A stretch of 64,000 nucleotides of DNA from Gammaproteobacteria bacterium (lineage in GTDB: Bacteria > Pseudomonadota > Gammaproteobacteria > UBA4575), in NCBI GenBank assembly GCA_033344735.1, contig JAWPMW010000001.1:911869-975868 (forward strand), read 5' to 3'. The translations under genes were made by a program, and so were the position numbers. Of this stretch, positions 4,739 through 55,901 are shown in pieces. The notes under the pieces were generated by a model. It searched no databases. It saw nothing but the letters and a program-made list of their open reading frames with translations, and was not told the DNA's origin. Position 1 is the stretch's first letter. Every line of letters starts with the position of its first letter.

Positions 4739-4765
4739 AGGCCGCCTTCTAAGGCGGCCTTTTTT
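4739..4765. terminator. Bidirectional rho-independent terminator hairpin
   Basis: aaaaGGCCGCCttctaaGGCGGCCtttttt: perfect 9-bp GC-rich stem flanked by A-run and T-run, 50 nt downstream of the mtoX stop (minus strand). Confidence 0.6.
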
Positions 4766-4816
4766 ATTTACAGCTTTTACGTTTACGTAATAAACGCTAG
4801 CCTAACCTCGGTTCAA

Positions 4817-7670: not shown

Positions 7671-9347
7671 ATGGACAAAGCAGTCACGCGCAAACGGAAT
7701 AAAATGAGGGGAGAGAAACGTGGAAGAAGCGTTAATCCTCTGGCTTTACAACAAGTTCGTGAATTATTAGGTGACATGCCCATTCGGCGCGACCTATTAA
7801 TTGAATATTTACATTTAATTCAGGATAAATATTTCCATATCTCTGCCGACCATATGACGGCATTAGCAAGTGTCATGAAATTAGCGACGACAGAAGTATA
7901 CGAAGTCGCATCTTTCTATCATCACTTTGATTTAGTCAAAGAAGGTCATCATGCTCCACCAGAACTAACCATCAGAGTATGCGATTCGGTTAGTTGCGAA
8001 ATGAATGATGCAAAAGCAATTATTAACACACTTGGAGGTAAATATAACGGTGAAATTCGCGTTCAACCTGTGCCATGTGTAGGACGTTGCGAACAAGCTC
8101 CAGTTGCGGTTGTAGGGACTAATGCAATTCCGTATGCAAACATAGATAAGATTGTCGCTGCGGTAGATAAAAATGAAAAAGAAGCTGTCGCACCTGCCTG
8201 CATTAATTTTGAAGAATACAAAAAGGATGGCGGTTATCAAACCTTATCTAAATTAATTAATGGTTCACTTTCTAAAGAAGATGTCATAACTACATTAGAA
8301 GATTCAAACTTACGTGGCTTAGGTGGCGCTGGATTCCCCGCAGGTAGAAAGTGGAGAATTGTAGGCGACCAACCTGCACCAAGAATTATGGCTGTTAATA
8401 TCGATGAAGGAGAACCAGGCACCTTCAAAGATCGTTACTATCTTGAAAGAGATCCACACAGATTTTTAGAAGGCATGTTAATTGCCGCATACGTTGTTGG
8501 CACTGATGCTATTTATATTTACTTGCGAGATGAATACGCTGGTGTACGCAAAGCATTAACCAGTGAATTAGAAAAGTTAAAAGCGGGTCTACCGCACGAA
8601 CTCCCTCATATTGAATTAAGGCGTGGTGCTGGCGCATATATTTGTGGTGAAGAATCAGCAATGATTGAATCCATAGAAGGCAAACGTGGTATGCCTCGTT
8701 TACGACCTCCATTTGTTGCACAAGTTGGTGTATTTGGACGCCCTACCCTTGAACACAATATGGAAACTCTTTATTGGGTACGAGATTTAATTGAACGTGG
8801 TGCGGAATGGTTCACATCGAACGGAAGACACGATCGTAAAGGATTACGTTCATTCTCTGTCAGCGGACGTGTAAAAAATCCCGGCGTGCATTTAGCTCCA
8901 GCAGGAATCACAGTTAAAGAATTAATCGATGAGTTTTGTGGCGGAATGCTGGAAGGTCATGAATTTTATGGTTACTTTCCTGGGGGTGCTTCTGGTGGAA
9001 TTCTTCCCGCATCCATGGGCGACATTCCAATGGACTTTGATACACTCAATGAATACGGATGCTTTATTGGTTCAGCAGCAGTAATGATTTTCTCAAATCA
9101 AGACAGTGCAAAACAGTTAGCACATAACGCAATGAAATTTTTCTCGCATGAATCATGCGGTAAATGTACACCATGCCGAGTTGGCACTTCCAAAGCAGTT
9201 ATGTTGATGGATAAAGATGATTGGAACCAACCATTAATGAAAGAACTTTCTCAAACCATGAATGACGCTTCCATTTGCGGTTTAGGTCAAGCAGCATCGA
9301 ACCCAATGCAATGCGTCATCAATTATTTTCCAGAAGAATTGAAATGA
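7671..9347 (+). CDS. fdsB: NAD-dependent formate dehydrogenase beta subunit with fused N-terminal NuoE-like (gamma) [2Fe-2S] domain and NuoF-like NAD/FMN/[4Fe-4S] domain
   Basis: N-terminal Cys cluster CDSVSC...CVGRC (NuoE-like). GLGGAGFPAGRKW and ESCGKCTPCR motifs of the NuoF/FdsB family. Confidence 0.85.
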   Translation: MDKAVTRKRNKMRGEKRGRSVNPLALQQVRELLGDMPIRRDLLIEYLHLIQDKYFHISADHMTALASVMKLATTEVYEVASFYHHFDLVKEGHHAPPELTIRVCDSVSCEMNDAKAIINTLGGKYNGEIRVQPVPCVGRCEQAPVAVVGTNAIPYANIDKIVAAVDKNEKEAVAPACINFEEYKKDGGYQTLSKLINGSLSKEDVITTLEDSNLRGLGGAGFPAGRKWRIVGDQPAPRIMAVNIDEGEPGTFKDRYYLERDPHRFLEGMLIAAYVVGTDAIYIYLRDEYAGVRKALTSELEKLKAGLPHELPHIELRRGAGAYICGEESAMIESIEGKRGMPRLRPPFVAQVGVFGRPTLEHNMETLYWVRDLIERGAEWFTSNGRHDRKGLRSFSVSGRVKNPGVHLAPAGITVKELIDEFCGGMLEGHEFYGYFPGGASGGILPASMGDIPMDFDTLNEYGCFIGSAAVMIFSNQDSAKQLAHNAMKFFSHESCGKCTPCRVGTSKAVMLMDKDDWNQPLMKELSQTMNDASICGLGQAASNPMQCVINYFPEELK

Positions 9348-9379
9348 AGAACTCAAATAAGGAAATGGAGTAACCACAA

Positions 9380-27100: not shown

Positions 27101-30100
27101 TCAGCTTCACTCATCAAACCAGTGCCCGCCGATAGATCGCGAATTTGTCCTTCAAAGTCTTGCACTTCATCAAAGTTACTTGACCAGTGAAGTCTGCCAT
27201 GACCTGCGCCATGACCTTGTAATGAAATGGTGTTACGTAGACCTTCACCAAATGCACTGATGTCCCAAACTCGACCATCACTATCACCTTCGTTATGACA
27301 TGACGCACAACTCATGTAATTATCAAGTGCTAAACGATCATCAGCTGCATCATAAAATAGTTGCTTGCCTAGGAAGACATCAGATGTTAATTGCTCACCA
27401 CCTACAACATTCACCGGACTAAGCAAATTCAATGCAGGCAGATCCGTTTCAATCATTTCAGTCAAGTCAAAGCGTGAAATACTTCTATCCATAAAGTTAT
27501 GCACATACGCAATACTACTATCAGTAGATAACGCAACGCCTTGAGGTGCACGGCCTGTTGGTAAACGCATTACTTCAAAATTATTAACAATATCAAACAC
27601 ACCAAGTTCACGACTGGTCTCTAAAGCAACGAGCAAGTAACGACTGTTGCCTGTTATTGCAGCACCAGTAGCAACACTAGCATTATCAAAATCAATACTA
27701 ATGTTTACACTGTCTTCAGTTTCAGTAGTTAGATCAATACGTGATGTATTCGCTCTAACAGTTGTATCGAATGTCATGCCTGGCTTGCCGCGCAATAGAC
27801 CTGAATCAACATTATCTTTCTTAGAAGGAATAAACCCGTTCTGATTATCAAAAGAAATAACAGGCGCATTCAGATAGTTTGGCATGCCTGGTCCCTGACT
27901 CTCAGAGATGAAACGATTATCGTAACTAAGTGCGATAGTATTGGTTAAACTCATTGATGGTGGATCGATAACAAATACTTCAGCAGCACCATTTTGCGTA
28001 TCTACAACCAATGTACTCTCACCAGGAATTGGTGGCGTTATAAAATTAGTAACTAACAAACGACTATCATCATATGTCATCGCAATATGACGCGGTGTGC
28101 CTGTCAATTGAGTACTCGCAATGACAGCGTGAGTCACAGCATTACGCGCTTCTACATGCGCCGTTGCTTCCAATACTAAGTAGTAGTTCGAACCAAGACT
28201 GTCGAAAACAATTCCGTGAGGTTGCGTGCCAAACGGCAAGCTAATTGTTTGCTCAACAACGAGTGTTTGAGTATTGATAACACTGATTGTTGCATCTTTT
28301 TTATTGGTTACATATACAAGATTTGCATTAGGTGCTTTAGCCAACGACCAAGGATTAAGACCAACAGGAATTTCTTGAATTAGATTTCCAGCTTCACTTG
28401 TTACAGACACCGAATTATTATCTGGGTTAACATTCCAGATACGGTCAGCACCAGTACTAGTTTCAACAATTAGTGTTGTCGAATTGCGGGGGGCTGTTGG
28501 TAAGTTAGCAAGATTTGAACCACCCGTAGGTGTTGAATCAATATTATCTCCATAACCATCACCATCGGAATCTGCTGTTTCAGTAGGATCATTCGGGAAT
28601 GCATCTGCATTATCACCCACACCATCACCGTCTGTGTCGGCTGATTCAGCTGGATCATTCGGGAACGCATCTGCATTATCACCGACGCCATCACCATCAG
28701 TATCAACTGTTTCAGTTGGATCATTAGGGAACGCATCTTCCGTATCAATGACACCATCTCCATCGCTGTCAACTGGGCCATTTGCCTGTACTAAAATCAG
28801 CTTTAACTCACTTAATTGCGTGCCTGATTCTCGATGGTATAGCGTGACTACGTGATTGCCTGCTGAAAGATCTACCGCAACTGGGTCTGTCTCACCGCGA
28901 TTAATTATTAGCAATGGTGTGAAAGTGTTTTGTATTTCTGTATCCCATAAATACGGTGTGCCCGGCGCACCATCGACACGTACATAAAATGAATCTGATG
29001 TATCATCAGTTGCTTGAACTGTCGCTTCTATTTGATAAATACCAGGAGTTGTTACATTGAATGTAAATTCAGCAGATCCTGCACTTTCACTAAAATCATA
29101 AGCGGGCACAACAGATTGCGGCACCTGAATGAATTGATTGTCTGGAGATAACTCAAAAGCACCAGACAGAACAGCTGCATTGGCTAACAACGCAAGCTCA
29201 GTATTGCCTCCACCATTATTACCGCTACCTTCTTCCACAACTATAGAGACTGGGACACTAGTGGCAATGGCACCGTCATTATCAGTTGCATCTGCAGTTA
29301 AAATATGAGCACCCTCAGTGGCACCATTCCAAATAAAACTATATGGAGCAGTGGTGTCAGTACCTAGCAATACTGCACCATCATAAAAGTCTACACTTGT
29401 AATATTACCATCACTGTCAGCTGCATCCGCAGTTATCGTTATAGCATCATCTTCTGTAAAGATTGCATTAGCTGCCGGTGCAGTTATGCTAACAGTTGGT
29501 AATATATACGGTGTTGGGTCAGAGTTGTCTCCGATACCATCACCATCTGTATCTTTTGTTTCGGTAGGATCATTAGGAAATGCGTCACTATTATCGCCGA
29601 CACCATCGCCATCTGAGTCTGTAGTTTCAGTAGGATCATTAGGAAAAGCATCTTCGCTATCTGGCACACCATCACCATCACTGTCACCTGGACTTTGAGG
29701 ATCTCTTAAAATTTGAATAGTCCTTCCAATCGATGGCGTATCATCACCGTTCATAGCAAATAACCAGTAATTACCTGCAATTAAAACGTTTGGATTAGAA
29801 AACATTGTCAAAGTAAATGTACCGTCACCATTATCGATAGAAGACACAGGGACAACACGCTGATCAGTATTCAAATGGTGAGTCGTTGCTGATAAACGAA
29901 CCATTGAAAAACTTTGTGTATCAGCACTTGCGCTTACAGTTATCTCATCACCAGCTCCAGCTTGTGATGGAGCGTTTGTGATTACCGGACGCGTTGCGAG
30001 TGAACCATCATTGTTGTACAAATAGGGAGGAGAATAAATCTGTGCATCAAGATGATTTGCATCACAATTACCACACGCTCCACCGCCGGCAGAAAATACG

Positions 30101-31614
30101 CGCGCATCTTTCATCAATATAGCAGTTGAGTGATATGTTCTAGGAATTGTTATCGAATCAACAATTCTCCAGCTATCTGTTTCTGGAGTATATATTTCTG
30201 ATTCAAAGACAGCGCCGAAGTCAGTAAAATTAAATGCGCTTGTATTTCCACCAACTACAATCACTTCACCATTTGGCAAGGTCACTGAGTTACTGTATGC
30301 ACGTGGAAAAGTCATCGGCGCACCTTGTGTAATAACAGGTGTAGGACCATTCAGGTCAACAAGATGCACATTAGTGTTAAGGACTGGTGGGGTCTCGCGT
30401 GTGTCTGAACCACCAATTAAAAGAACTTTACCTACATCATAAGTAACTACATTTCCCCACATTCTTGCGCGATTACCTGTAGGTTGTCCCAAATCTTGGT
30501 TTGCAGTGTCATCTATGGGATCAAAAGAATGCAAGGTCGGTGTCGGTCCACCATGAAATACTCTGCCATTAGGTTGAACTGCTAAAAGAGCATACCACTC
30601 CATATTTCCGCCGCCGCCTTGGATATTATTATGCTCTTGCAATAAAGTTTGCATACTAACGTTTGGCGTCCTGATCCAAGAGTTTAAATCCGGGTCATAT
30701 TTTTCAGAGCGATTGCCCGCACCTCTTGCAAACGTTGAAAATATTTGATTATTTGGCAGCGTTATATTTGTTCCATACCATCTTTCATCAAACATGTCCG
30801 GTAATGGCCCCCACGTTAAAGTATTTGGATCAAAACTACTTGTACGTGCATCTTGAGGATTTCCACCTGACGCAACTATGACGCCATTTTCTAAAGTAGA
30901 TACACCAGTACAGAACATATCGTGAAAATTATTGTCAGTCGTTTGAAAAGTATTATTTGATGGATCAAAAACAGCTGAATGTGTATAAAAATTTCCCGCA
31001 GGAAAACTATCCGGCTCACTAGCCGACCACGTCAATATACGTCCATCAGTTAATGTAGCAGCGTAAATAGCAATATGAGGCCAATCAATTACTGGTCCCC
31101 ATTGGCCCATTTCTTTCAGTGTGGAGAGATCACCATTTAGTGCACCATCGGCTGGAATCGCCTCAAATCCTCCACCAGCAACTCTATATTGGACGTCTAA
31201 AAATCCATTTGTACCTTTAGAAAAATATTCAACACGTAATTGATATACACCAGGGTTTAAAAACAATTGCCCACCTACCGTAATCGGTGCATGCAAGCCA
31301 TCATTATCAACAATAAGATTGTTATCAATTAAAAGTGCCGAACCATCATCAGAAGTAGTTTGAAATTCATAAGTTCCAGCTGTAGTGACTGATATTTGAT
31401 TTGTAAAAACTAAACCGAAGGTATCAGTTTGGGACGTCACGTTTAGAGAAATAGTATCGTTGGTACCTGTTGCTATAGGACTTAAAGCAGTAAAATCTGG
31501 CAATTCATCATAATCTCCATCGTACACACTGTAGTCGAACTGTGAATATGCTGTTGAGCAAAATACGATTAACAACAGTGTAAAAGCTGAAGTTAGTCTA
31601 ACTAATTGTGACAT
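24154..31614 (-). CDS. Giant secreted multidomain protein (2486 aa): PA14, galactose-oxidase-like copper radical oxidase, TSP3 Ca-binding repeats, Ig-like domain, CBM-like module, YVTN beta-propeller, di-haem cytochrome c peroxidase domain, TSP3 repeats, CBM-like module, 5 tandem Ig-like repeats, C-terminal CBM-like module
   Basis: Signal peptide. Copper radical oxidase active-site residues conserved (HDMFC235TG, ERWY280, RTY494H495S, TTHH580). DxDGDGxxDxxDAFPNDP thrombospondin-type-3 repeats in three blocks (about 29515-29690, 28500-28790 and 26470-26650). YVTN propeller (LVYVTNKKDATISV). Di-haem CCP domain with CASCH (27296-27310) and CTSCH (26907-26921). Tandem 95-96-aa Ig-like repeats (APYSFTWNGATEGAHSLTA). 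Confidence 0.85.
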   Translation of the reverse strand: MSQLVRLTSAFTLLLIVFCSTAYSQFDYSVYDGDYDELPDFTALSPIATGTNDTISLNVTSQTDTFGLVFTNQISVTTAGTYEFQTTSDDGSALLIDNNLIVDNDGLHAPITVGGQLFLNPGVYQLRVEYFSKGTNGFLDVQYRVAGGGFEAIPADGALNGDLSTLKEMGQWGPVIDWPHIAIYAATLTDGRILTWSASEPDSFPAGNFYTHSAVFDPSNNTFQTTDNNFHDMFCTGVSTLENGVIVASGGNPQDARTSSFDPNTLTWGPLPDMFDERWYGTNITLPNNQIFSTFARGAGNRSEKYDPDLNSWIRTPNVSMQTLLQEHNNIQGGGGNMEWYALLAVQPNGRVFHGGPTPTLHSFDPIDDTANQDLGQPTGNRARMWGNVVTYDVGKVLLIGGSDTRETPPVLNTNVHLVDLNGPTPVITQGAPMTFPRAYSNSVTLPNGEVIVVGGNTSAFNFTDFGAVFESEIYTPETDSWRIVDSITIPRTYHSTAILMKDARVFSAGGGACGNCDANHLDAQIYSPPYLYNNDGSLATRPVITNAPSQAGAGDEITVSASADTQSFSMVRLSATTHHLNTDQRVVPVSSIDNGDGTFTLTMFSNPNVLIAGNYWLFAMNGDDTPSIGRTIQILRDPQSPGDSDGDGVPDSEDAFPNDPTETTDSDGDGVGDNSDAFPNDPTETKDTDGDGIGDNSDPTPYILPTVSITAPAANAIFTEDDAITITADAADSDGNITSVDFYDGAVLLGTDTTAPYSFIWNGATEGAHILTADATDNDGAIATSVPVSIVVEEGSGNNGGGNTELALLANAAVLSGAFELSPDNQFIQVPQSVVPAYDFSESAGSAEFTFNVTTPGIYQIEATVQATDDTSDSFYVRVDGAPGTPYLWDTEIQNTFTPLLIINRGETDPVAVDLSAGNHVVTLYHRESGTQLSELKLILVQANGPVDSDGDGVIDTEDAFPNDPTETVDTDGDGVGDNADAFPNDPAESADTDGDGVGDNADAFPNDPTETADSDGDGYGDNIDSTPTGGSNLANLPTAPRNSTTLIVETSTGADRIWNVNPDNNSVSVTSEAGNLIQEIPVGLNPWSLAKAPNANLVYVTNKKDATISVINTQTLVVEQTISLPFGTQPHGIVFDSLGSNYYLVLEATAHVEARNAVTHAVIASTQLTGTPRHIAMTYDDSRLLVTNFITPPIPGESTLVVDTQNGAAEVFVIDPPSMSLTNTIALSYDNRFISESQGPGMPNYLNAPVISFDNQNGFIPSKKDNVDSGLLRGKPGMTFDTTVRANTSRIDLTTETEDSVNISIDFDNASVATGAAITGNSRYLLVALETSRELGVFDIVNNFEVMRLPTGRAPQGVALSTDSSIAYVHNFMDRSISRFDLTEMIETDLPALNLLSPVNVVGGEQLTSDVFLGKQLFYDAADDRLALDNYMSCASCHNEGDSDGRVWDISAFGEGLRNTISLQGHGAGHGRLHWSSNFDEVQDFEGQIRDLSAGTGLMSEADFTATSDTLGIPKAGLSADLDALAAYVNSLTEIPANPYAVAAVDMTAEAIAGEIVFNNSGCTSCHTGILLTDSEQALLHDIGTIDTASGQRLGSTLDGFDTPTLLGIFKTAPYLHDGSAQTVAEAISAHNTVTLSSTELDQLSAYLEQASFIDSDGDGVLDTEDAFPNDPTETQDTDGDGVGDNSDVFPNDPTETQDTDGDGIGDNADETPFGDTGLEVLEQAAQDAVIFGAFALSPDNQFIEVPQNIEPAYDFGISAGYAEFTFNVVTAGTYQIEATVLANDDTSDSFYIRVDGVPNTPYLWDTEIQNTFTPLLIINRGETDPVTVNLSAGEHVVTFYHRESGTQLSNVKLILDQPSQNVAPTVGLTAPIANATYTVGDAISLTADATDPGGSIISVEFYDGATLLSTDVNAPYSFIWNGASLGAHSLTAVATDNEGAATTSAIVNISVNQPIPNIEPTVNLTAPSDNASFVFGNAITLIADASDSDGTVTSVEFYDGAILLSTDTTAPYSFTWNGAAEGAHIVTAVATDDDGDVSVSGDVNITVTPPPNVDPTVAITAPAANATFTVGDAINITASASDSDGSITSVDFYDGAILLSTDTTAPYSFTWNGATEGAHSLTAIATDNEAATTTSAAININVNTPAANVDPTVAITAPAANATFTLGDAINITASASDSDGTVTSVDFYDGATLLSTDTTAPYSFTWNGATEGAHSLTAVATDNEAATTTSVAIDITVTVPANVDPTVVITAPAANATFTVGDTINITASASDSDGSVTSVDFYAGTTLLSSDITAPYSFTWNGATEGAYSLTAVVTDNEAATTTSAAVSITVEADTGGGPEVLDLPASSASLSGAFVLAANGQYIHVPESFGDYYSFTPSTGSAQFTFNVTTAGLYQIEADIFANSFGSDSFFVQVDGGPSTPYLWDTGQHYSSFVPTLVTNRGESGAVTLNLTPGQHVVTFFLREDNTQISGVRLNLIQAF
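24600..26050 (-). repeat. Five tandem in-frame 285-288-bp repeats encoding Ig-like domains inside the giant gene
   Basis: Near-identical DNA units start at 24670, 24955 and 25243 (caagct[ag]t[ga][ca]gcaccttcagtcgcaccattccaagt), with further copies upstream. A separate pair of about 400-bp CBM-encoding duplications lies at roughly 26055-26460 and 28800-29200. Confidence 0.7.
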
Positions 31615-31885
31615 AGTAAGTTTCTCAAAATTATTAGTATTTAAGCGGTAAATAAATTTTATTACCCTGATCTTATATAATGAGTACTACTAATTCATTA
31701 CTACTATTACGTATTTGTGATCATCTTCTCCCTTTTATCTGGAGTAATGTCTTTTTTGTCTAATCCGACAGTTTTACTTGTATAAATTAGGATAAAGCAG
31801 AAAAGATAAATATTTTTGAGAGAATATTATGAGAAAAGATAAATTCTTTCTCTCACAATAAGTTAAGGTCTGAATTGTTCCGCAG

Positions 31886-33118
31886 TTATTTAACTGACAA
31901 CATATTTAAAAAAGCGACTAAATGATCAAGCTGCTCTGATTGTAAATTCAGTGGCTTTAATTCATGAGCGCCATTATCAGTAGGTGGATGATTATAAAAT
32001 TCCACAACCTCCTTTAATGTGTTAAATCGACCATCATGAAAATAAGGTCCAGTTAACTCAACGTTGCGCAGTGATGGAGTTTTGTAGGCTCCATGAAGTG
32101 GAATATGATTAGTGCGATTTAGAAATCTCAGCGCCGTGCAACTATCAGGTTTAGCATCACTATAAGCACCCAAGCAATTAAATTCATCCATCAACACTGC
32201 TTGAAGTCCAAAGACGCGACCAAAATCAAGCTTGCCTCCTTCAAATCTTCCACTACCAACATTATGAAATCCACCATTAGTCAATAACGCTCCATTATGG
32301 CACTGCATACATTGTGTTTTCTCAGGATCAATAAACAATTTAATCCCTTCTATCTCATCTTTAGTGGGTTCAATGACTTGATTATTTTTATCGAATAACT
32401 GATCAACATAGTTATCAAATCGACTAGGCTTAGGTGCTAACGTTCTTTCATAGGCTTCAATCACCTTACCTAGATTAGAGTACACTCTATTTATCTTTTT
32501 CTGCGTTAAAATAGGTAAACGATACCAGTTATCCTGTGTTTTCATATCACCAAATGGTCCAGCGTGTTTAGGCAAATCACTACTTAGAAAATTTTTCGGA
32601 AATTCACCAAAAATTGACTCGTACATGTCGCGATAGTTCTCATCTTGAGTGACAATACGTACCACAGCAAGGCGACTGCTGCCCATCTCGTCCTTTGCCT
32701 CAAATGGTATAAGCGCTTGTGCCCAAAGTGAATCTCGACGACCATCCCAATAAAACCATCGCAACCATCCACTACCAACAATCGTGGGAGTATTTCTTCC
32801 TGCAGTGTTTTTACTGTTTATATGAGGCAGACCATCTGTGAAATATTTATCTGGTTGATGACAAGTAGCACAAGATGTATCACCATTGCCACTTAAACGT
32901 TCATCAAAAAAAAGTTTCTCTCCAAATGATTTGGCTTGAGGAAGATCAGCAAAACGATTAGATGCGCTATCAGGCAAAGAAGGCAACGCAGAAAGTGATA
33001 GCGACTGCAATATAGATAACTCATATTTAGTCCACTGCCTGTCGCCTGCAAAACAGAATACTGGCAGGCAAAAAGTTATAAGCAAAGTTAACGCGTTAAA
33101 ACGAGAGTTCAATATCAA
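31886..33118 (-). CDS. Di-haem cytochrome c peroxidase family protein (CcpA/MauG-like)
   Basis: Signal peptide. CATCH and CMQCH haem motifs. GPYFHDGRFNTLKEVVEFYN C-terminal block. Overlaps the upstream small gene by 23 nt. Confidence 0.85.
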   Translation of the reverse strand: MILNSRFNALTLLITFCLPVFCFAGDRQWTKYELSILQSLSLSALPSLPDSASNRFADLPQAKSFGEKLFFDERLSGNGDTSCATCHQPDKYFTDGLPHINSKNTAGRNTPTIVGSGWLRWFYWDGRRDSLWAQALIPFEAKDEMGSSRLAVVRIVTQDENYRDMYESIFGEFPKNFLSSDLPKHAGPFGDMKTQDNWYRLPILTQKKINRVYSNLGKVIEAYERTLAPKPSRFDNYVDQLFDKNNQVIEPTKDEIEGIKLFIDPEKTQCMQCHNGALLTNGGFHNVGSGRFEGGKLDFGRVFGLQAVLMDEFNCLGAYSDAKPDSCTALRFLNRTNHIPLHGAYKTPSLRNVELTGPYFHDGRFNTLKEVVEFYNHPPTDNGAHELKPLNLQSEQLDHLVAFLNMLSVK

Positions 33119-38880: not shown

Positions 38881-39705
38881 TTACTCAGAAACTGCAAATG
38901 TTTCCAGCCGAACCAAATGCATTAACTCTTTAAAATCATCAACAATAACATCAGGTCTATGTGGATGCGTGACTGTACCTGGAAAAATTTTATCCAGCCA
39001 TTCTTTGCTCCAATCTGCCCCATTGTAGTAAATTGCTGTTACGCCAGCTTCTTTTGCCGCAATAATATCGGTAGTACTATCACCCACATACCAGCAAGAC
39101 AAACTTGCTTCTTCATCTAATTCATGGAGTGCTTTTAAAATTTGGTCAGGAGCCGGCTTCCTCTTCGGCACATCATCTCCACAAACAATAACATCAAAGA
39201 AATGCTCCCAACCAGTTTCGTTAACCACCGAAACCTCATGCATCATAAATTCGCGATTTCGATTAGTTAGCGCCCCTACGGCCAAGTTCAATTCACGTAG
39301 ATCTGTTAACATTTTTTCAACACCTTCCTCAAAAGGGTGTACATCACCAAAATAATCACGATAAGCATCATCAAATGCTTCATGGACCAATTTCTTTGCC
39401 TCTTCATCATCGCCAAACAGCACTTGAAAAATATCAGTACGTGAGACTTTACGAGCAACCTTTAACTTTGGGTGTAGTTTTTTATTATCGCGCACATACT
39501 TAACTAATTTAGCATCTTCCAGTGTTTTGCTATCCTCAGTTTTCACCATCCTATCCACTACACCCAGCTCATTTAGCTTAGGCAAAACATCATCAATAGC
39601 GTGATACATAGCATCATGCGTATCAACCAATGTGGCGTGCCAATCAAACAATATAATTTTTGGTGCCGCGTAAGGTATATCTACTATGCTCACTATATAA
39701 TCCAC
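38881..39705 (-). CDS. HAD-superfamily hydrolase
   Basis: IILFDWHATLVDT (DxHxT/D motif I), GDS..D motif IV (YVGDSTTDIIAAKEAG). Confidence 0.65.
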   Translation of the reverse strand: MDYIVSIVDIPYAAPKIILFDWHATLVDTHDAMYHAIDDVLPKLNELGVVDRMVKTEDSKTLEDAKLVKYVRDNKKLHPKLKVARKVSRTDIFQVLFGDDEEAKKLVHEAFDDAYRDYFGDVHPFEEGVEKMLTDLRELNLAVGALTNRNREFMMHEVSVVNETGWEHFFDVIVCGDDVPKRKPAPDQILKALHELDEEASLSCWYVGDSTTDIIAAKEAGVTAIYYNGADWSKEWLDKIFPGTVTHPHRPDVIVDDFKELMHLVRLETFAVSE

Positions 39706-39928
39706 CCATAATTTAATATTAGAATTTCAAACAAGTTCATTTAACAATTAAAATATCAGCATTGGTACGCATAAATTGTAAAAAAATGTTACTCAATTTA
39801 CTGATGTGATTTAACTCACTTATCAATACCAACATTCTATTACAATTGCTTCTCTTGAAATTCAAAACAATAATAAATGGACTATCTAATCACAATTAAT
39901 ACAGATAAGCCCACAAAGAGACTCTACA

Positions 39929-40739: not shown

Positions 40740-41447
40740 TCATTCATTTAAAGTCTTTAGCACAGTAATTATCTCTTCTGGAGTTGCTCTATTTTTATAA
40801 TCCGCATCTAAGAATGCATATTCAACCACACCATTTTTAGCAATCACATATGTAACAGCTAACGGCAGCCTATTTTCATTATCACCATTATGAGCATTCA
40901 ATTTAGATGACAAATCGTAATGGTCTACTACATAATTAGGCACGGTATAAGCAAGCTTATACCTATCTGCAACTTTATTTTTGGTATCACTAAGCACCTG
41001 AAATTCAAGCATATGTCGCTCTTTGGTAGACATTGTTTTGTCCGGTAGCTCTGGCGAGATAGCAATAACCTGTCCACCAGCCTGATGAATTTCATTTAAT
41101 TTCTTTTGTATGTGTTGAAGTTGTAAATTACAGTAAGGACACCAACCACCACGGTACCAAACGAGAACCACAGGACCTTTCTCTAATTGATCATATAAAC
41201 TGACATATTTTCCTATAGCATTAACGAGATTGAACTCAGGCGCATAATCACCAACATTTATTGCTTTATCTAGAATTCCTGAATATCTTACTTCATCAAC
41301 CCCATTATTGAAGTCACTCTGCACATCCTCTGGCGCTGTTTCAATGAAATCTTTTACAAATCTATCAAGATCTTCAGACAGACTAGTCGTTGCATAAGCA
41401 ATATTAGAAACACATATAGCTATTAATACCAAAATCAGTTTAGTCAT
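40740..41447 (-). CDS. Secreted redoxin / AhpC-TSA-family thiol peroxidase-like protein
   Basis: Signal peptide. VWYRGGWCPYCNLQL (thioredoxin-fold CxxC, peroxiredoxin/redoxin family). Confidence 0.7.
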   Translation of the reverse strand: MTKLILVLIAICVSNIAYATTSLSEDLDRFVKDFIETAPEDVQSDFNNGVDEVRYSGILDKAINVGDYAPEFNLVNAIGKYVSLYDQLEKGPVVLVWYRGGWCPYCNLQLQHIQKKLNEIHQAGGQVIAISPELPDKTMSTKERHMLEFQVLSDTKNKVADRYKLAYTVPNYVVDHYDLSSKLNAHNGDNENRLPLAVTYVIAKNGVVEYAFLDADYKNRATPEEIITVLKTLNE

Positions 41448-41639: not shown

Positions 41640-43046
41640 TTAATCTTGATAATTTTGCGAGGCAGATTTTTTAGTACGATACAAACCCCATCTATTTCGT
41701 CGCATCCAAAGCGCTTTTCTGCCTATACCTAATAGTGATGCAAGTTGCTGTTCGCTGTATTCGTGCTGATAGTCTTTAACAATTTTTTTGGTAAACTCTT
41801 CAATAGACATAGGCGCAATTTCGCTTTCGTCCGATAATGTTGAATTTAAATTAGACGCATGATGACTCCTTATATGCTTGAAGTCTTTTATTTTCAATTC
41901 ATCATCTGTGGCTAATATGATAGCCCTTTCAATTGAATTTTCTAGCTCTCTAATATTACCAGGCCATTCATATTCCATTAAATATTCAATCAACTCATTG
42001 TTTGCACTATTAACTTTTCTGCCTAATTTCTTATTGTGCATTTCAATAAAATGATCTACTAATAATACTAAATCATTTGCTCTTTTTCTTAATGGAGGAA
42101 CTAATATCTGTACAACATTAAGTCGATAATAAAGATCTTCACGCATTTTGCCCTTACTAACTTCGTAATGCAGGTCTCTATTGCCCGCTGCAATGATTCT
42201 TATATCAACATTGTAATCTTTATTACTTCCAACAGGTCTAACAATTCTTTCTTCTATTACTCTAAGCAGTTTAACTTGAAGCGAAAGATCCAACTCAGCT
42301 ATTTCATCCAGAAATAAAGTGCCGCCATTAGCTTGTCGTATTAAACCTTCTGTTTCATTCGTTGCTCCGGTATAAGCACCTTTTGCATGACCAAAAAATT
42401 CTGACTCCATCAGCTCCTTTGGAATAGCGCCGCAATTGACTGCAACAAATCTGCCTTCTCTTCTTGGGCTTGCTCTATGAATAGCTTGCGCAACAAGCTC
42501 CTTTCCGGTTCCACTTTCACCTTGTATTAATACAGTTGCTTCACAGGGGCCAACACGAGTAATCAATGACTTCAATTCAATCATCGATTGGCTTTCACCA
42601 ATTATTTCTCTTTTCTGACGCAATGCTACATCTAGGTCACGTTTGAGATTTTTATTTTCTTTTTTAATACTTCTTTCATTGATTACACGTACAACAGCAT
42701 GTAACAAATATGAATCTGTAAACGGACGCAAAATATAGTCTGCTGCACCTAGACGCAACGCTTGAGCTGCACACTTTATAGAAGTATAGCTTGTATATAT
42801 TATAATAGGACATTCCAACTTTTCAGATCTAACTTTTCTAAGTAGATCCAAGCCAGATTGGCCATTCATATTAAGGTCGCTGAGTACCAAGTCGAAATGT
42901 TCAGATAACAGCATATCAACCGCGTTATCTACTTTTCTAACGTGTTTTACATCAAACTGTTCTTCCATGAGAGGTTCTAAGACTGTTTCAGCAAATTCTA
43001 TATCGCTATCAACGACTAAAATTTTATGTACATGCGTAAAACCCAT
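41640..43046 (-). CDS. Sigma-54-dependent response regulator (NtrC family: REC + AAA+ sigma-54 activator + Fis-type HTH)
   Basis: REC domain with acceptor Asp (LVLSDLNM). GESGTGKE Walker A, GAFTGA-like loop (GAYTGA), ESEFFGH, and a C-terminal HTH (LASLLGIGRKALWMRRNRWGL). Confidence 0.85.
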   Translation of the reverse strand: MGFTHVHKILVVDSDIEFAETVLEPLMEEQFDVKHVRKVDNAVDMLLSEHFDLVLSDLNMNGQSGLDLLRKVRSEKLECPIIIYTSYTSIKCAAQALRLGAADYILRPFTDSYLLHAVVRVINERSIKKENKNLKRDLDVALRQKREIIGESQSMIELKSLITRVGPCEATVLIQGESGTGKELVAQAIHRASPRREGRFVAVNCGAIPKELMESEFFGHAKGAYTGATNETEGLIRQANGGTLFLDEIAELDLSLQVKLLRVIEERIVRPVGSNKDYNVDIRIIAAGNRDLHYEVSKGKMREDLYYRLNVVQILVPPLRKRANDLVLLVDHFIEMHNKKLGRKVNSANNELIEYLMEYEWPGNIRELENSIERAIILATDDELKIKDFKHIRSHHASNLNSTLSDESEIAPMSIEEFTKKIVKDYQHEYSEQQLASLLGIGRKALWMRRNRWGLYRTKKSASQNYQD

Positions 43047-46000: not shown

Positions 46001-47758
46001 TTAATTTCGCCTTTTTCTTTTCTTAGGATTATCTGAGTTCACCAAGAAAACATTCTCTTGAATCTCTCTACCAATACGTGTGTTACGACGAATCACTTGC
46101 GCAAGAGATGTCTGCTCAATTGAACGTACTTGACGAGGTGACATGCTGTTTTCATACCAGAAGCGGTCACCATCACGCAGCCTTTCAAATTGGTCCTTTA
46201 AAATAGCAAAGAAAACTTCTCCCACTAATGCCCCGGCTACTTTATCTTCTGCGAGGCCACCTACCCAAAGATCAACTTCGTTAACGGTCGTATAAGCTTC
46301 AGCCAACTTTGCTTGTATGTCAGTATTCGATGAAATATCTGCGAAGTTCACAACAGGTGCCAGACCTAATGCGACGCGAGTATCATTATAACTAGCTAAA
46401 CCATGATCACGCCCACGTTGTATATTGAGTGAAGCTAAATCAAACCCTCCATTACCAGGTAGACCAAATAAAAAATTACGAACATCATCAATGATAAGCA
46501 CATCAAGGTCTTGGCAAGCCTGTTTTGCCAGCCCCCTTAATATAGGGTCAATACCACCTTCATTGATAATACTACCGGGAGAGAAGAAAGCATCTCGCAA
46601 GGAGAGATTTCCAAAAGCAATTTCATTACCACTTCGATCCAATCGCAGTATTTGTGGTGAAAGTAAACTATGTCCCAAGCGATATGCAGCAGTAGAAAAT
46701 TCATTACGAATGCTTGCATCAAGATCGGGGTTATAACCACTGTATTCACTTAATGCATTTGGTCCAAGTAGCACGGGTATAAATTCTTTATAAGTAATGA
46801 CCTGCATAAGCGCAGCTACTTTATTACGTGCACGTTGATAAATTTCATCACCGCTTAAATTGGATTGACGTCTAGCAATTCTTGTTGCCAGTCGATTATG
46901 CTCGCGAACAAATAAAGTATGCATAGCTGTGAGTCCAACTTGCTCATTAGCACGCACATCACCTGCCAAGAATAATGTCTCACTTGGACCACCAGCATTA
47001 CTTAAACCCGCAGTATTAAATGGTAGTAGGTTGCCCTCACTGGTTTTTAATTTTCCGGTACCATCTAAAGTACGCAATTCAGCGGCACGCTCATCATCAG
47101 AACCATATACATTAGATGCATCAATCCAGCCGGTGATTTCGTTAACTTGTTGGCGTGGATTATCAGCATTGAGTCCTGTCAGTTCATCATAGTTTGATCG
47201 GTTGAATGGCAGCACCACATCACCCGCATCATTAGGATCAAAAAGCTCATCTCCAGAAGGGATAGCAATGTTAGCAGGTTCTGGTATCGGCACGCCTTCG
47301 GTTAAATCAATATCGTGATCTAGAAATTGGCCCCACTGCCAAAGAAAGTCACTGGCAACATTTGGGGTTTGTGTTGAGATGGCTTGCGCCAATACACTAT
47401 TACTAACGACACGTGGATTGGGTCGTGTTGCTCCTGCTAATGCTGATATGTCATCACTATATGCATTTGGTGCAATGCGAGCCAACTGTGTGTGAGGCGT
47501 ATTCATGTCTGGGACTGCAATATTATTATTCGTTCCATTAATCGAGCGAATAAATACTTCGATGTTATTATTTTTATTGCGTCGATTATGGTCACGTTCG
47601 ATTCGTCGAACAGGAGAAGCATTTCGATCTTGTACGGTTTTATCCGCTTCTTTTAATAATTCGCCACCAGAAAGCCTTTGCCGTTGCTCTCCAATAACAA
47701 CTGTTGATACAAAAAAAGCACCTAATATAATAAAAATAATTATACTTTTTCTTGTCAT
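46001..47758 (-). CDS. Secreted animal-type haem peroxidase (peroxidase-cyclooxygenase superfamily)
   Basis: Signal peptide. LWQWGQFLDHDIDLT distal-His motif, GDVRANEQVGLTAMHTLFVREHNRLA proximal-His region, NIQRGRDHGLASYN, DLWVGGLAEDKV, RDGDRFWYEN. Confidence 0.85.
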   Translation of the reverse strand: MTRKSIIIFIILGAFFVSTVVIGEQRQRLSGGELLKEADKTVQDRNASPVRRIERDHNRRNKNNNIEVFIRSINGTNNNIAVPDMNTPHTQLARIAPNAYSDDISALAGATRPNPRVVSNSVLAQAISTQTPNVASDFLWQWGQFLDHDIDLTEGVPIPEPANIAIPSGDELFDPNDAGDVVLPFNRSNYDELTGLNADNPRQQVNEITGWIDASNVYGSDDERAAELRTLDGTGKLKTSEGNLLPFNTAGLSNAGGPSETLFLAGDVRANEQVGLTAMHTLFVREHNRLATRIARRQSNLSGDEIYQRARNKVAALMQVITYKEFIPVLLGPNALSEYSGYNPDLDASIRNEFSTAAYRLGHSLLSPQILRLDRSGNEIAFGNLSLRDAFFSPGSIINEGGIDPILRGLAKQACQDLDVLIIDDVRNFLFGLPGNGGFDLASLNIQRGRDHGLASYNDTRVALGLAPVVNFADISSNTDIQAKLAEAYTTVNEVDLWVGGLAEDKVAGALVGEVFFAILKDQFERLRDGDRFWYENSMSPRQVRSIEQTSLAQVIRRNTRIGREIQENVFLVNSDNPKKRKRRN

Positions 47759-47796
47759 GCCGCCGCCTTATTTTCTTGATTAAGTTGTTTTACTCA

Positions 47797-47841
47797 TAAT
47801 TCACACTTTGTAATATGTGTTAATTCACACTTTTTAATATG
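47797..47841. promoter_or_regulatory. Two 21-bp direct repeats (TAATTCACACTTT[G/T]TAATATG, 24-bp period) in the haem peroxidase promoter region
   Basis: Seen directly in sequence. 20 of 21 positions identical. 39-83 bp upstream of the peroxidase start codon. Confidence 0.4.
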
Positions 47842-48232
47842 CATTATTTTTAAATGATGTTGAATCAAGGCCAACGGTAGTCTGAGACTGACAAACGGTA
47901 GAGAAAGCTCGCTAATCAATTGAATTAATTTGAATTTATCTTTTGTGAACGACTTAACGTGCATTCTAAGCCCTAGAGTTGTTACTGGTAGGAAGCAGGC
48001 TTAATCCAATAACGCATAGCATGTTTTCAAGTAATGTCCACTTTCGACCCAAAACGACATTCAAGATTATAGTAAACCTTGATCTCGTTTTGCATTTTTG
48101 TCTATATTTCTTATATTTAAACACTGTTTTGGTTACCAATAACTTGTGTAATTATATAAGTAATTGCGAATGATATTAACTTGACTCTGCAGATTTATAT
48201 AACAGCTGTTAGCAGCATAACGGATCAAATCG

Positions 48233-49294: not shown

Positions 49295-49705
49295 GTGGAT
49301 AAAATAGAAAGTTATAAAGCTAGTTGCAGTTGTGGAATAATTGAAGTCTCTATGCAAGGAAACCCAAAAGTAAAAGGATTTTGTCATTGCGAAGATTGTC
49401 GAGAACTATTAAATGTACCTTATCATTCTGTAAACGCATGGGATAATAATAATGTTACGGTCTTAAAAGGCAGTGTTTATATTAGAGAATATCAGCACTC
49501 TAAACTTAAAATGAAGAAGTTCTATTGTAGTGAATGTGGAGACACTATTTACAACTCTAATGCTATGGATTGGAAAGTATTTTCACAGTTGTTGATTAGC
49601 AAGTCTTATAGTGGAAATCTACCTAAAGAGCTTCATCCAGAATCCCATTTTTTTTATGACAGCCGTATTATTGATATTAATGATGATTTGCCGAAACATA
49701 GTTAG
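49295..49705 (+). CDS. GFA-family protein (glutathione-dependent formaldehyde-activating enzyme / CENP-V-like)
   Basis: Cys ligand pattern CSCG...CHCEDC...CSECG, characteristic of the Gfa zinc sites. 136 aa. Confidence 0.75.
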   Translation: MDKIESYKASCSCGIIEVSMQGNPKVKGFCHCEDCRELLNVPYHSVNAWDNNNVTVLKGSVYIREYQHSKLKMKKFYCSECGDTIYNSNAMDWKVFSQLLISKSYSGNLPKELHPESHFFYDSRIIDINDDLPKHS

Positions 49706-49822: not shown

Positions 49823-50653
49823 TTGTTTTTATCATTAAAATCAAATAAGAGGTACGCCATTTTGGAAGATCAATCAGTTGACGCTTATAAACCTGCAAAA
49901 ATTGCTGAACTAGTAGAAAATATTGGTGTGACTAAAGCTGTCATGCCTACTGTACCAACGATTATGTTGGGCTTAATGGCAGGTGCTTTCATAGCATTTG
50001 GTGCTATGTTTTACACACTAGTCATGACCAATAACGATATGGGACTAGGTCCCGCTAGATTGCTAGGTGGTCTAGCATTTTCATTGGGTTTGATACTGGT
50101 GCTGGTGGGTGGAGCAGAGCTTTTCACAGGTAATAATTTTATTGTGATGGCATGGGCCGAGAAAAAAGTAACAACGCTTCAGCTGTTAAGAAACTGGTCT
50201 ATCGTCTATATCGCAAATTTTGTAGGAGCTGTTGGAACGGCATTATTAATTTTTTGGTCTGGTGTACTTACTATTGGTGAGAACGCTTTCGCCGAGAATG
50301 CATTAAACATTGCAGTCTACAAAACTAACCTAGACCCCTTACAAGCATTTATTAGAGGTATTTTATGTAATGCACTGGTATGTCTATCAGTTTGGATATG
50401 CTTTGCAGCACGTGATGTAGCAAGCAAAATTTTAGCAATTATTTTTCCTGTCTCAGCTTTTGTTGCATTAGGCTTTGAGCATTGTATTGCAAATATGTAC
50501 TTTATCCCGCTTGGCATGATTCTAAGCGATGGACAAATAGGAATTACTGATTTTATGACAAACATAATTCCTGTAACCGCTGGAAATATAGTTGGAGGGA
50601 GTATATTTGTAGCATTTGTGTATTGGATTGTTTATGTAAGGGATTATAAGTAA
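49823..50653 (+). CDS. Formate/nitrite transporter (FNT) family channel
   Basis: Six TM helices. GGAELFTGNN and L..GNIVGG FNT signature loops. The exact start is uncertain (possible TTG start near 49860). Confidence 0.8.
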   Translation: MFLSLKSNKRYAILEDQSVDAYKPAKIAELVENIGVTKAVMPTVPTIMLGLMAGAFIAFGAMFYTLVMTNNDMGLGPARLLGGLAFSLGLILVLVGGAELFTGNNFIVMAWAEKKVTTLQLLRNWSIVYIANFVGAVGTALLIFWSGVLTIGENAFAENALNIAVYKTNLDPLQAFIRGILCNALVCLSVWICFAARDVASKILAIIFPVSAFVALGFEHCIANMYFIPLGMILSDGQIGITDFMTNIIPVTAGNIVGGSIFVAFVYWIVYVRDYK

Positions 50654-54700: not shown

Positions 54701-55901
54701 TTGTGCATGGCGAATTAGTATTTTTGCATAATATCACTTGAATTCGCAGTCTTGTTATTGATTGGAATCTAACTATGATAAGTCTGCATGAAGGATGTAC
54801 TCTTACTTGCCATTCATTTTGTAACGCTACTTATCCGCCTGCTTCAACCCAGTGGAATAAAGGCAGTTGCGGCTGAAAACTTGACGCTAAAGAAACAACT
54901 GTTAGTCATTCAACGATCGAGATCGAAAGCACCCAACCTCACTACTATGGATCGACTGATCTTTGGGTGGTTGGCAATGTTGCTTTCTCCCAAACGAATC
55001 TCTCGATCTTGCATCATTTTAAAACCTTCGACCCTTCTCTCGTTTCACAAGGCACTCGTGAAACGAAAATACTTACAACTTTTTTCTTCTACTGGCAAAG
55101 GAAAACCTGGCCCTAAAGGTCCCAACAGTGATTTGATTAAAGCCATTATCGAAATTAAACAACGCAATCCCAGGTTTGGCTGCCCACGTATTGCACTCAT
55201 TATTACAAATACATTTGGTATCGAAATTAACAAAGATGTTGTGCGAAGGATATTGATGAAACATTATCATCCAAGCCCTAATGACAAAGGCGGCCCTTCT
55301 TGGTTATCTTTTATTGCTAACATGAAAGACAGCTTGTGGAGTATTGATCTATTCTGTTGTGAATCCACTACACTGAAAACGCATTGGGTACTCGTCGTCA
55401 TGGATATCTGGAGTCGACGGATGATTGGATGTTCAGTCAATAAAGGACCTGTCGATGGCCCAACTCTTTGCAGGATGTTCAATCAGATCATATCTAATAA
55501 AAGTGCACCTCATTATATAAGTACGGACAACGACCCTCTTTTTCAATTTCATCGATGGAAAGCCAACCTTAGAATTCTGGAAATTGAAGAAGTGAAATCC
55601 ATTCCCTTTACGCCAATTTCACACCCTTATGTCGAACGAGTGATTGGCACTATAAGGCGCGAGTGTCTGGACCAGACATTATTTTGGAATGAAGTTGATC
55701 TGCAGAATAAACTGGATGACTTCATCGACTACTATAACAATCATCGCGTGCATGCTTCGCTTAATGGCAATGTGCCCGCCAATTTTGGCGAAGAAAGATT
55801 GCAATCAGTTGCGAATCTAAAAAAGTTTAACTGGAAAACACTTTGTCGCGGACTGGTTCAACTCCCAATCCCAGCTTAAATTACCAATTCGCCATGCACA
55901 A
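54701..55901 (+). mobile_element. IS481-like insertion sequence (about 1.2 kb) with 20-bp imperfect terminal inverted repeats
   Basis: Left inverted repeat TTGTGCATGGCGAATTAGTA (54701-54720). Right inverted repeat reverse complement TTGTGCATGGCGAATTGGTAA (55881-55901), matching at 19 of 20 positions. TGT termini. A single DDE transposase ORF. No obvious target-site duplication. Confidence 0.7.
54788..55879 (+). CDS. DDE transposase (rve integrase-core domain)
   Basis: D (VVMDIWSRR)...D (YISTDNDPLF)...E (HPYVERVIGTIRRE) catalytic triad spacing. C-terminal YNNHRVHASL. Confidence 0.85.
   Translation: MKDVLLLAIHFVTLLIRLLQPSGIKAVAAENLTLKKQLLVIQRSRSKAPNLTTMDRLIFGWLAMLLSPKRISRSCIILKPSTLLSFHKALVKRKYLQLFSSTGKGKPGPKGPNSDLIKAIIEIKQRNPRFGCPRIALIITNTFGIEINKDVVRRILMKHYHPSPNDKGGPSWLSFIANMKDSLWSIDLFCCESTTLKTHWVLVVMDIWSRRMIGCSVNKGPVDGPTLCRMFNQIISNKSAPHYISTDNDPLFQFHRWKANLRILEIEEVKSIPFTPISHPYVERVIGTIRRECLDQTLFWNEVDLQNKLDDFIDYYNNHRVHASLNGNVPANFGEERLQSVANLKKFNWKTLCRGLVQLPIPA

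Follow-up and report, generated by a model that had tools for sequence, protein, structure and literature searches.

What is the origin of two near-identical 21-mers that directly precede the gene for an animal-type haem peroxidase in a gammaproteobacterial genome, and do they control the gene? The window (the whole 64-kb stretch of DNA that was analysed) carries the gene on its minus strand, with the following parts:

46001-47758, minus strand: haem peroxidase CDS, 585 aa, peroxidase-cyclooxygenase superfamily (by PF03098 and identity to CyanoPOX)
47690-47758, minus strand: predicted N-terminal export signal, codons 1-23, MTRK plus a 19-residue hydrophobic core ending VIG/E (by hydropathy and homologue N-termini)
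47766-47769, minus strand: Shine-Dalgarno-like AAGG, 7 nt before the ATG, in an AATAAGG context shared with the relatives L004 and L005

The first-pass annotation had named the product an animal-type haem peroxidase, checkable with PF03098, and had stated that all catalytic motifs are present; both points were borne out. The An_peroxidase profile (PF03098, gathering cut-off 25 bits) matched the 585-aa ORF over profile positions 2-530 of 530 (E 2.9e-159, 531.5 bits). The best solved-structure match was CyanoPOX (PDB 8S6C; E 2e-174, 57% identity over 500 residues), the crystallised, iodide-oxidising ‘bacterial lactoperoxidase’ of Cyanobacterium sp. TDX16 (PMC11776367), other PDB matches being DdPoxA (6ERC, E 1e-94) and MPO and LPO (E 1e-83 to 1e-70). 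Every catalytic and Ca-binding residue was found and aligned to CyanoPOX. The distal Gln-His-Arg triad (motifs Q-x3-D-H-D and X-R-X-X-E-X) comprises Q141 and H148 of QWGQFLDHD, which also carries D147 and D149, and R269 of GDVRANE, which also carries E272; H148 and R269 align to His81 and Arg199 of CyanoPOX. The proximal His-Asn-Arg triad is formed by H363 of RLGH, which also carries R360, and by N445 and R448 of NIQRGRDHG, corresponding to His294, Asn376 and Arg379, and the Ca site is T209/W211/D213/S215. The ester-forming Asp and Glu are both in place as residues (D147 and E272). Because of this level of identity to an assayed enzyme, the protein is predicted to bind haem and to have H2O2-dependent peroxidase/halogenation activity, and it appears closest to the short bacterial CyanoPOX/LspPOX type.

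Given an identical protein at NCBI (MDW3095007.1, ‘peroxidase family protein’), the likeness to CyanoPOX and the 14,323 clusters at 50% identity that make up the PF03098-type family (E ≤ 1e-3), the enzyme counts as ordinary: it had been annotated before, and its large family is known biochemically. More than 8000 homologues were found at E ≤ 1e-10 in a collection clustered at 90%, and in view of these counts and of the assayed bacterial relative, the earlier description of such enzymes as sporadic in bacteria was overstated. The genes next to the peroxidase are different in every relative (synteny comparison), and the gene is therefore without usable operon context.

The 19-residue stretch after MTRK has a mean Kyte-Doolittle value of 2.66, and homologues have classical Sec signals ending VIGA/Q, with lipoboxes in some; Sec signals occur throughout the family. 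A basic n-region and a hydrophobic h-region are present in the window protein, which reads VIGE-Q where its relatives have VIGA/Q, and cleavage would therefore need to fall after G23. The signal peptide and secretion proposed at first thus stand in part: export appears well supported by MTRK, the hydrophobic core and the Sec signals of the homologues, but this does not extend to the cleavage site, for which VIG/E is a prediction, or to secretion past the periplasm.

The two 21-bp direct repeats lie where they were first reported, at 47797-47817 (TAATTCACACTTTGTAATATG) and 47821-47841 (TAATTCACACTTTTTAATATG), with a period of 24 and 39-83 nt upstream of the ATG at 47758. None of 100 dinucleotide-preserving shuffles gave a repeat match at ≤3 mismatches, and elsewhere in the 64-kb window, non-coding DNA contains no near-tandem repeat as long. 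Compared as 24-mers, the copies are identical at 21 of 24 positions, and two of the three mismatches fall in the 3-nt spacer, a clustering that a constrained 21-bp site could also yield. The repeat scores below 30 and was therefore not listed by TRF, but find_repeats detected it.

The repeats had been taken for adjacent operators through which a tandem-binding response regulator, of OmpR/PhoB type or similar, would control the peroxidase. In keeping with this, they are real, non-random and promoter-proximal, the inter-copy mismatches are mostly in the spacer, a response-regulator gene (41640-43046) lies 4.7 kb away, and OmpR/PhoB-family operators are likewise direct repeats close to the promoter. 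Such sites, however, have a 10-11-bp periodicity, whereas the period here is 24 bp, or ~2.3 helical turns, with no internal sub-repeat of 10-11 bp: the self-identity of the repeat region is 0.88 at offset 24, and 0.37 and 0.27 at offsets 10 and 11. Moreover, the only response regulator nearby depends on sigma-54, and no -24/-12 promoter was found in the intergenic region; the best match to a sigma-54 promoter tied to this NtrC-type regulator has 4 mismatches and lacks the GG/GC core, and was rejected.

The motif also fails to recur in the sequences searched. Beyond the two copies, no further match to the 21-mer was found in the 64-kb window of this 2.4-Mb genome, elsewhere in which more copies may lie, and none was found in 85 other fetched loci. 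A search of 185,579 reference genomes (596 Gb; source genome not included) gave one single-copy match, in an unrelated Fluviicola, which is probably at chance level given our estimated expectation of 0.5-1. Near-matches to the 13-mer core TAATTCACACTTT (12 at ≤2 mismatches, against 4.5 expected) are nearly all within coding regions, and the core was rejected as a regulon signal because nine of the ten extra matches lie inside ORFs. A second 13-mer, AAAAGATAAATTC, which is common to the regions upstream of a giant ORF and of the peroxidase, was not enriched relative to shuffles and was likewise discarded.

Five independent relatives were close enough to align, at 75-87% protein identity (L007/L008, 87%; L004 and L005, 78%; L087/L088 and L002, 75%), and no direct repeat was found at the corresponding place in any of them. 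They have in common a gap-free 125-nt upstream block in which the repeated segment is single-copy; the second copy and the AAAGTGTGAATTA core are missing from all five, so that the repeats, unlike OmpR/PhoB operators, are not conserved in orthologous promoters. With the second copy absent in relatives, the period wrong, and neither a recurrence of the motif in the sequences searched nor a -24/-12 promoter, the tandem response-regulator site lost its support, and we regard it as improbable.

Compared with the relatives, the window has every conserved landmark a further 21-24 nt upstream of the ATG. CTACCG lies at -122 in the window and at -101, -98, -99 and -97 in L007, L004, L005 and L087, respectively; CATATT lies at -83 and -59 in the window and at -62, -59 and -58 in relatives; and the CRP-type site lies at -201 in the window and at -180, -177, -178, -177 and -177 in relatives. 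The 24-nt length difference, which also counts against an operator, maps exactly to the duplicated segment. The distance from CTACCG to CATATT is 39 nt in L007, L004 and L087, and the same in the window when measured to the distal copy, while the proximal copy retains the ancestral 59 nt to the ATG. Since the spacing to the upstream landmark is retained by the distal copy and that to the start codon by the proximal one, the repeats bear the signature of a 24-bp tandem duplication that is specific to the lineage and known from this genome alone, and are probably not an ancestral operator. A probability of about 0.72 is given to the whole explanation, that is, to the enzyme, the upstream control region and the duplication together. 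The duplicated segment is laid out as follows:

47797-47820, minus strand: proximal copy of the 24-bp tandem duplication (gene-sense CATATTACAAAGTGTGAATTATGA... register), CATATT-to-ATG distance ancestral
47821-47844, minus strand: distal copy of the 24-bp tandem duplication, CTACCG-to-CATATT distance ancestral
47812-47817, minus strand: proximal CATATT, the duplicated copy by comparison with relatives
47836-47841, minus strand: distal CATATT, candidate -10 hexamer, conserved in L007, L004 and L087

The source is a metagenome-assembled genome and a second sample of the species was not found, which would leave room for a spurious duplication created in assembly. Artefactual duplications are normally identical, however, and the copies differ at 3 of 24 positions, which argues against an artefact and for some age; the contig, in addition, is 2.4 Mb long. 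We consider an assembly error extremely unlikely.

Upstream of the tandem duplication, the comparison points to a control region that is conserved within the clade and would include a candidate CRP-type site (E1), two (T/A)ACCGTT elements 21 bp apart (E4 and E5) and CATATTA, the assignment of the last as a -10 element being a guess:

47836-47959, minus strand: conserved upstream block from E1 to CATATT, gap-free in five relatives despite differing flanking genes
47944-47959, minus strand: E1, candidate CRP-type site CGTTAAGTCGTTCACA, 2 mismatches, position conserved; counterpart in L087 perfect (TGTGAATAACCTCACA)
47894-47901, minus strand: E4, CTACCGTT, conserved (T/A)ACC element, in each of the five relatives exactly 21 nt before E5
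47873-47880, minus strand: E5, CTACCGTT, positioned 39 nt ahead of CATATT (the distal one in the window), conserved in L007, L004 and L087

Sites of the CRP type occur upstream of the peroxidase family at 0.56/kb, against 0.067/kb in other non-ORF DNA (~eight-fold), and the enrichment across the family is limited to the N6 spacing. TGTGAA/TTCACA is the top specifically enriched hexamer upstream of the family (16 of 57, against 2.7 expected). Sites with 2 mismatches arise by chance in ~10% of shuffled 300-nt regions. The scanned ORFs, which cover most window ORFs of at least 110 aa, yielded no cNMP-binding/HTH_Crp protein. Readings of E1, E4 and E5 as ECF-type promoter, ArcA-type or OxyR-type elements were tried by eye and dropped, the spacings being unsuitable. 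To our knowledge, there is no published study on the regulation of this peroxidase family.

Since each repeat copy carries TGTGAA, the hexamer most specifically enriched in the family, the duplication may not be functionally neutral. Two further features would owe their existence to it:

47814-47829, minus strand: CRP-like 16-mer TGTGAATTAACACATA, 2 mismatches, across the copy junction (consensus scan)
47796-47823, minus strand: sigma-70-like promoter TTAACA-16-AATTAT, 9/12, a consensus match only

The 16-mer across the junction exists solely because of the duplication, and the TTAACA and AATTAT hexamers are each derived from the GAATTA end of a repeat copy. It is conceivable that the duplication is an adaptive remodelling of the promoter, in which a second TGTGAA half-site, the junction site and possibly a new sigma-70-like promoter were gained. 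The peroxidase would then differ in its basal expression or in its cAMP-CRP-type control. It would fit the strong, N6-only enrichment of CRP-type sites upstream of the family, the 2 mismatches of the junction site, the same number as in the conserved E1 of this genome, and a promoter scan that puts both hexamers inside the repeats. An independent 21-nt repeat in L004, with 31-bp spacing, lies over the TCACA half of E1 and could be a parallel case. Sites with 2 mismatches are common by chance, however, the junction site lacks a key C in its right half (ACATA), and the promoter match is just 9/12. That the second TGTGAA half-site and/or the -10-like element rewires cAMP-CRP-type control of an exported haloperoxidase is accordingly doubtful in our judgement, albeit of wider consequence: short bacterial peroxidases would then be unrecognised, recurrent members of CRP-family regulons in marine Proteobacteria, and carbon/energy status would be linked to extracellular peroxide and halide chemistry.

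The repeats might alternatively act at the level of RNA or peptide, as a structured 5' leader or as a 16-codon upstream ORF (MHIKKCELTHITKCEL; 47844-47794, minus strand). The period of 24 nt equals 8 codons, and an ATG-to-TGA frame covers both copies, but the upstream ATG has no Shine-Dalgarno sequence and is missing in L007. The fold of the repeat region has z = -0.96, with 34 of 200 shuffles folding as well, RNAalifold gave zero pairs and hence no consensus structure in the conserved block, and an Rfam search of the intergenic region returned nothing above noise. A riboswitch or structured leader was rejected on the zero pairs and the z value, and a role as RNA or peptide is very unlikely.

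The combined results suggest a model in which a monocistronic gene, preceded by a clade-conserved control region, would yield a haem b peroxidase that is exported and falls in the short, CyanoPOX/LspPOX-like bacterial branch of its superfamily. Judged from its homologues, the enzyme would oxidise iodide, bromide, thiocyanate and phenolic substrates with H2O2, and after exposure to peroxide its haem could become ester-linked to D147 and E272. In the promoter, the duplication would have copied CATATTA and the next 17 nt and placed every upstream element 24 bp further from the ATG, with a probable effect that is neutral or a modest retuning of promoter/leader geometry. As first stated, the finding matters little, the enzyme being routine and annotated and the duplication private. 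Two by-products are of modest value: a clean natural case of a bacterial promoter that contains a small tandem duplication, the polarity of which was resolved via relatives, and the frequent presence of CRP-type sites ahead of a widespread, physiologically unexplained peroxidase family, which offers a handle on when bacteria deploy these enzymes.

Among known regulatory systems, the CRP/Vfr/Clp-type operators (TGTGA-N6-TCACA) resemble E1, which is at a fixed position in the clade and has a perfect counterpart in L087. In contrast to such operators, the left half-site of E1 in the window is degenerate (CGTTA), and if CATATT is the -10 element, the centre of E1 would be ~122 nt ahead of the start, outside the canonical class I and class II positions.

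Among known enzymes, CyanoPOX is a haem b enzyme with a kcat of 885 s-1 on KI, and its conserved Asp and Glu are still without ester links to the haem (PMC11776367). It has in common with the window protein the distal His and Arg, the proximal His, Asn and Arg, the Asp and Glu at the ester positions, and the Ca ligands. Each protein is a single domain of about 55-60 kDa that lacks disulfides; the window protein has one Cys. The C-termini differ, with a PEP-CTERM sorting motif in CyanoPOX and a short polybasic tail, NPKKRKRRN, without a hydrophobic helix in the window protein, which also has, unlike CyanoPOX, a conserved ~45-residue N-terminal extension (LSGxELLKxAD...SPVRRI) after the signal peptide. 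LspPOX of Lyngbya sp. PCC 8106 and the Family 6 ‘peroxidockerins’ belong to the same bacterial branch, towards the animal peroxidases (PMC4420034, PMC5787809). The window protein resembles them in having both ester-forming residues and, as in LPO, Gln rather than Met after the Glu (RANEQ), a feature that predicts iodide, bromide and thiocyanate, in place of chloride, as substrates of the halogenation cycle; unlike the peroxidockerins, it has no dockerin or other accessory domain, and its putative Family 6 membership is based on similarity to CyanoPOX and DdPoxA. The MopA-type bacterial animal haem peroxidases, which have the same Pfam domain, are exported or outer-membrane-associated enzymes with a demonstrated extracellular redox role in Mn(II) oxidation and extracellular superoxide production (PMC6247904, PMC6414704). 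They are long, multidomain ‘peroxicins’ with haemolysin-type Ca-binding repeats, whereas the window protein is short and single-domain.

The peroxidase gene carries two 21-bp direct repeats at 39-83 bp upstream of its start codon, with a period of 24 bp, and the description of them in the first-pass annotation was borne out in every detail. Taken as 24-mers, the copies are identical at 21/24 positions. The 21-mer had zero matches in shuffled windows, and the pair is the sole non-coding near-tandem repeat of that length within the 64-kb window. The features of the region are as follows.

46001-47758, minus strand: ORF encoding the 585-residue peroxidase, ATG at 47758
47797-47817: 21-mer, copy proximal to the ATG
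47821-47841: 21-mer, distal copy
47873-47880: E5, (T/A)ACCGTT element
47894-47901: E4, (T/A)ACCGTT element
47944-47959: E1, CRP-type 16-mer

The relatives retrieved for comparison were L001/L007 and L008 (one species, 87% protein identity), L004 and L005 (78%), and L087/L088, L002 and L003 (75%), and the genes flanking the peroxidase differ in all of them. A 125-nt upstream block nevertheless aligns without gaps between the window, L007, L004, L005 and L087, and comprises, in gene sense, E1, the pair E4 and E5, and a CATATTA 39 nt past E5. From CATATT to the ATG there are 58-62 nt in the relatives, as against 83 in the window.

Positions of upstream elements relative to the ATG
E1: window -201; relatives -177 to -180
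E5: window -122; relatives -97 to -101
CATATT: window -83 and -59; relatives -58 to -62

Distances to all upstream elements are ancestral when measured from the distal copy, and the distance to the start codon is ancestral when measured from the proximal one. This is precisely the pattern that a 24-bp tandem duplication leaves behind, and since every outgroup is single-copy, the duplicated state is the derived one, acquired in the lineage of the window. The repeat core AAAGTGTGAATTA was found in no relative, CATATTA being the only common element. The three positions at which the copies differ argue against an assembly artefact or a very recent event. On this comparative evidence, the repeats are best read as a 24-bp tandem duplication private to this lineage, involving part of the promoter or leader, rather than as a conserved tandem operator.

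The suggestion that the repeats form a binding site for a tandem-binding response regulator did not hold: the site is not conserved, the second copy being absent from the relatives, the period corresponds to ~2.3 helical turns, and no 10-11-bp sub-periodicity was found in the repeat. The sole nearby response regulator (41640-43046) is a sigma-54 activator, and its control of the gene was rejected because the peroxidase intergenic region has no -24/-12 element. Nor did a regulon marked by the 21-mer emerge from the sequences searched. It did not recur in the remainder of the window or in 85 other loci, and among 185,579 species-representative genomes (a collection that evidently lacks the source genome) it gave one single-copy match, in a Fluviicola MAG, which is at chance level (expectation 0.5-1 by our own arithmetic); relaxed matches to its 13-mer core lie nearly all within coding sequences. 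A role at the RNA level is unlikely, given that the intergenic region has no Rfam match, the conserved block no consensus structure and the repeat region an unremarkable fold energy. A 16-codon upstream ORF, MHIKKCELTHITKCEL (47794-47844, minus strand), has the two copies as its halves (24 nt equalling 8 codons); it has no Shine-Dalgarno ribosome-binding site, is not conserved in L007, and probably spans the copies by coincidence.

The position of E1 is fixed throughout the clade. The element is a perfect TGTGAATAACCTCACA in L087/L088, reads TGTGGATTACTTCGCA in L002, and is (C/T)(G/T)TTA-N6-TCACA in the window, L007, L004 and L005. Across 64 distinct upstream regions of peroxidase homologues (300 nt each, L007-L088), TGTGA-N6-TCACA with at most one mismatch occurs in 13 (9/56 independent clusters), compared with 0.45 ± 0.63 in shuffles, and is perfect in L022, L076/L082 and L087/L088. 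The excess is confined to the 6-nt spacer, other spacers of 2-10 nt giving 0-3. With redundant loci removed, these sites occur at 0.56/kb, compared with 0.067/kb in the remaining non-ORF DNA of those loci, a ~8-fold enrichment (Poisson P ~4e-6, for cases that are phylogenetically not fully independent), and an unbiased hexamer scan returned TGTGAA/TTCACA as the top specific motif (16/57, 2.7 expected). The enrichment, its N6 specificity and the top hexamer together make it seem that this peroxidase family is under CRP-family control in many lineages. The window as a whole has a single CRP-type site with one mismatch or none, TGTGATTTAACTCACT (39805-39820); it is intergenic, ~100 nt upstream of a HAD-hydrolase gene (38881-39705, minus strand), consistent with an organism using a CRP-family regulator.

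E4 and E5 (CTACCGTT) are separated by exactly 21 bp, and five relatives have retained both elements in the same register. To judge from this conservation, the pair looks like a genuine direct-repeat operator, situated immediately upstream of the candidate core promoter; no match to a known regulator was found.

The duplication leaves room for regulatory consequences, in that the repeat unit contains TGTGAA, the junction between the copies creates a CRP-like 16-mer with two mismatches, and a consensus promoter scan found a sigma-70-like promoter (9/12) composed of the two GAATTA ends; we nonetheless consider such consequences improbable. An independent 21-nt direct repeat with 31-bp spacing, CA(T/C)AAAATG(C/T)AAGTTCATTTT, is present in the 78% relative L004 (3125-3176), in the same promoter block and over the TCACA half of E1. 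Only the family-wide CRP-type signal and the natural experiment of one copy versus two appear worth pursuing.

The window holds several further features.

1391-7129, 31886-33118 and 40740-41447: unusually dense peroxide/thiol redox genes (three AhpC/TSA, two di-haem cytochrome c peroxidases (CCP_MauG), two SCO1/SenC, one SBP56 of the methanethiol-oxidase family)
7671-12139: formate-dehydrogenase-like pair
24154-31614, minus strand: 2486-aa giant ORF with PA14, glyoxal/galactose-oxidase-like (H2O2-producing type) and six Big_7 domains, a weak CCP_MauG match, and coding tandem repeats of 285 and 66 nt
31799-31849: 18-nt direct repeat upstream of the giant ORF, AGAAAAGATAAAT(AT/TC)TTT, 33-bp spacing
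49295-49705: GFA
49823-50653: formate/nitrite transporter
54788-55879, plus strand: rve-family integrase/transposase ORF, a sign of a mobile element ~7 kb from the peroxidase

The redox genes, with the formate, GFA and transporter genes, suggest a C1 or organosulfur lifestyle. That the giant ORF supplies extracellular H2O2 to the peroxidase is pure speculation. A 13-mer, AAAAGATAAATTC, is common to the repeat at 31799-31849 and the block upstream of the peroxidase (47932-47944), and is not enriched relative to shuffles.

The assignment of the enzyme as a haem peroxidase with all catalytic motifs was upheld. A Pfam search matched PF03098 (animal haem peroxidase) end to end (E 2.9e-159), and no NCBIfam model matched. 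The distal (Q141, D147, H148, D149, R269, E272), proximal (R360, H363, N445, R448) and Ca-site residues (T209, W211, D213, S215) are complete in both the motif search and a residue-by-residue cross-check against the alignment to the best solved structure, 8S6C. Export across the inner membrane, the safe reading of 'secreted', is well supported by an N-terminus in which MTRK precedes a hydrophobic stretch of 19 residues, and by classical Sec signals in 60-odd homologues, several with lipoboxes. The signal ends in VIGA before Q in the nearest relatives and reads VIGE-Q in the window protein, so cleavage would be needed after G23, or else the segment would remain as an anchor. After the signal (residues 24-70) comes an extension conserved across the family, LSGxELLKxAD...SPVRRI. 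The polybasic C-terminal tail NPKK(R/S)KRRN (46001-46045) recurs in the 87% relative alone.

The enzyme is an ordinary member of a known, already characterised kind. An identical sequence is deposited as MDW3095007.1 ('MAG: peroxidase family protein [Gammaproteobacteria bacterium]', 2.4-Mb contig), at least 8000 homologues occur at E<=1e-10 in a 90%-clustered collection, and at 50% identity the family has 14,323 clusters with E<=1e-3 and 3,742 with E<=1e-30. The nearest solved structure is 8S6C (E 2e-174, 57% identity across 500 aligned residues), ahead of Dictyostelium DdPoxA (6ERC) and, after that, mammalian MPO, EPO and LPO. It is the structure of CyanoPOX, a haem b monomer of Cyanobacterium sp. 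TDX16 that is active on iodide (kcat 885 s-1), guaiacol, ABTS and 2,6-DMP, and in which the conserved Asp/Glu are still without ester link because the protein was never exposed to peroxide (PMC11776367). The two proteins are alike in their distal and proximal residues and conserved Ca site (PMC11776367), whereas the CyanoPOX homologue ends in a PEP-CTERM motif and the window protein in its polybasic tail. Under the classification used by Zamocky et al. (PMC4420034) and Nicolussi et al. (PMC5787809), sequence similarity would put the window protein in Family 6, alongside bacterial and early-eukaryote enzymes such as LspPOX, which perform a halogenation cycle with iodide, thiocyanate and bromide. 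The long bacterial MopA-type peroxidases, known for Mn(II) oxidation or superoxide production (PMC6247904, PMC6414704), have the domain in common with it but differ in architecture.
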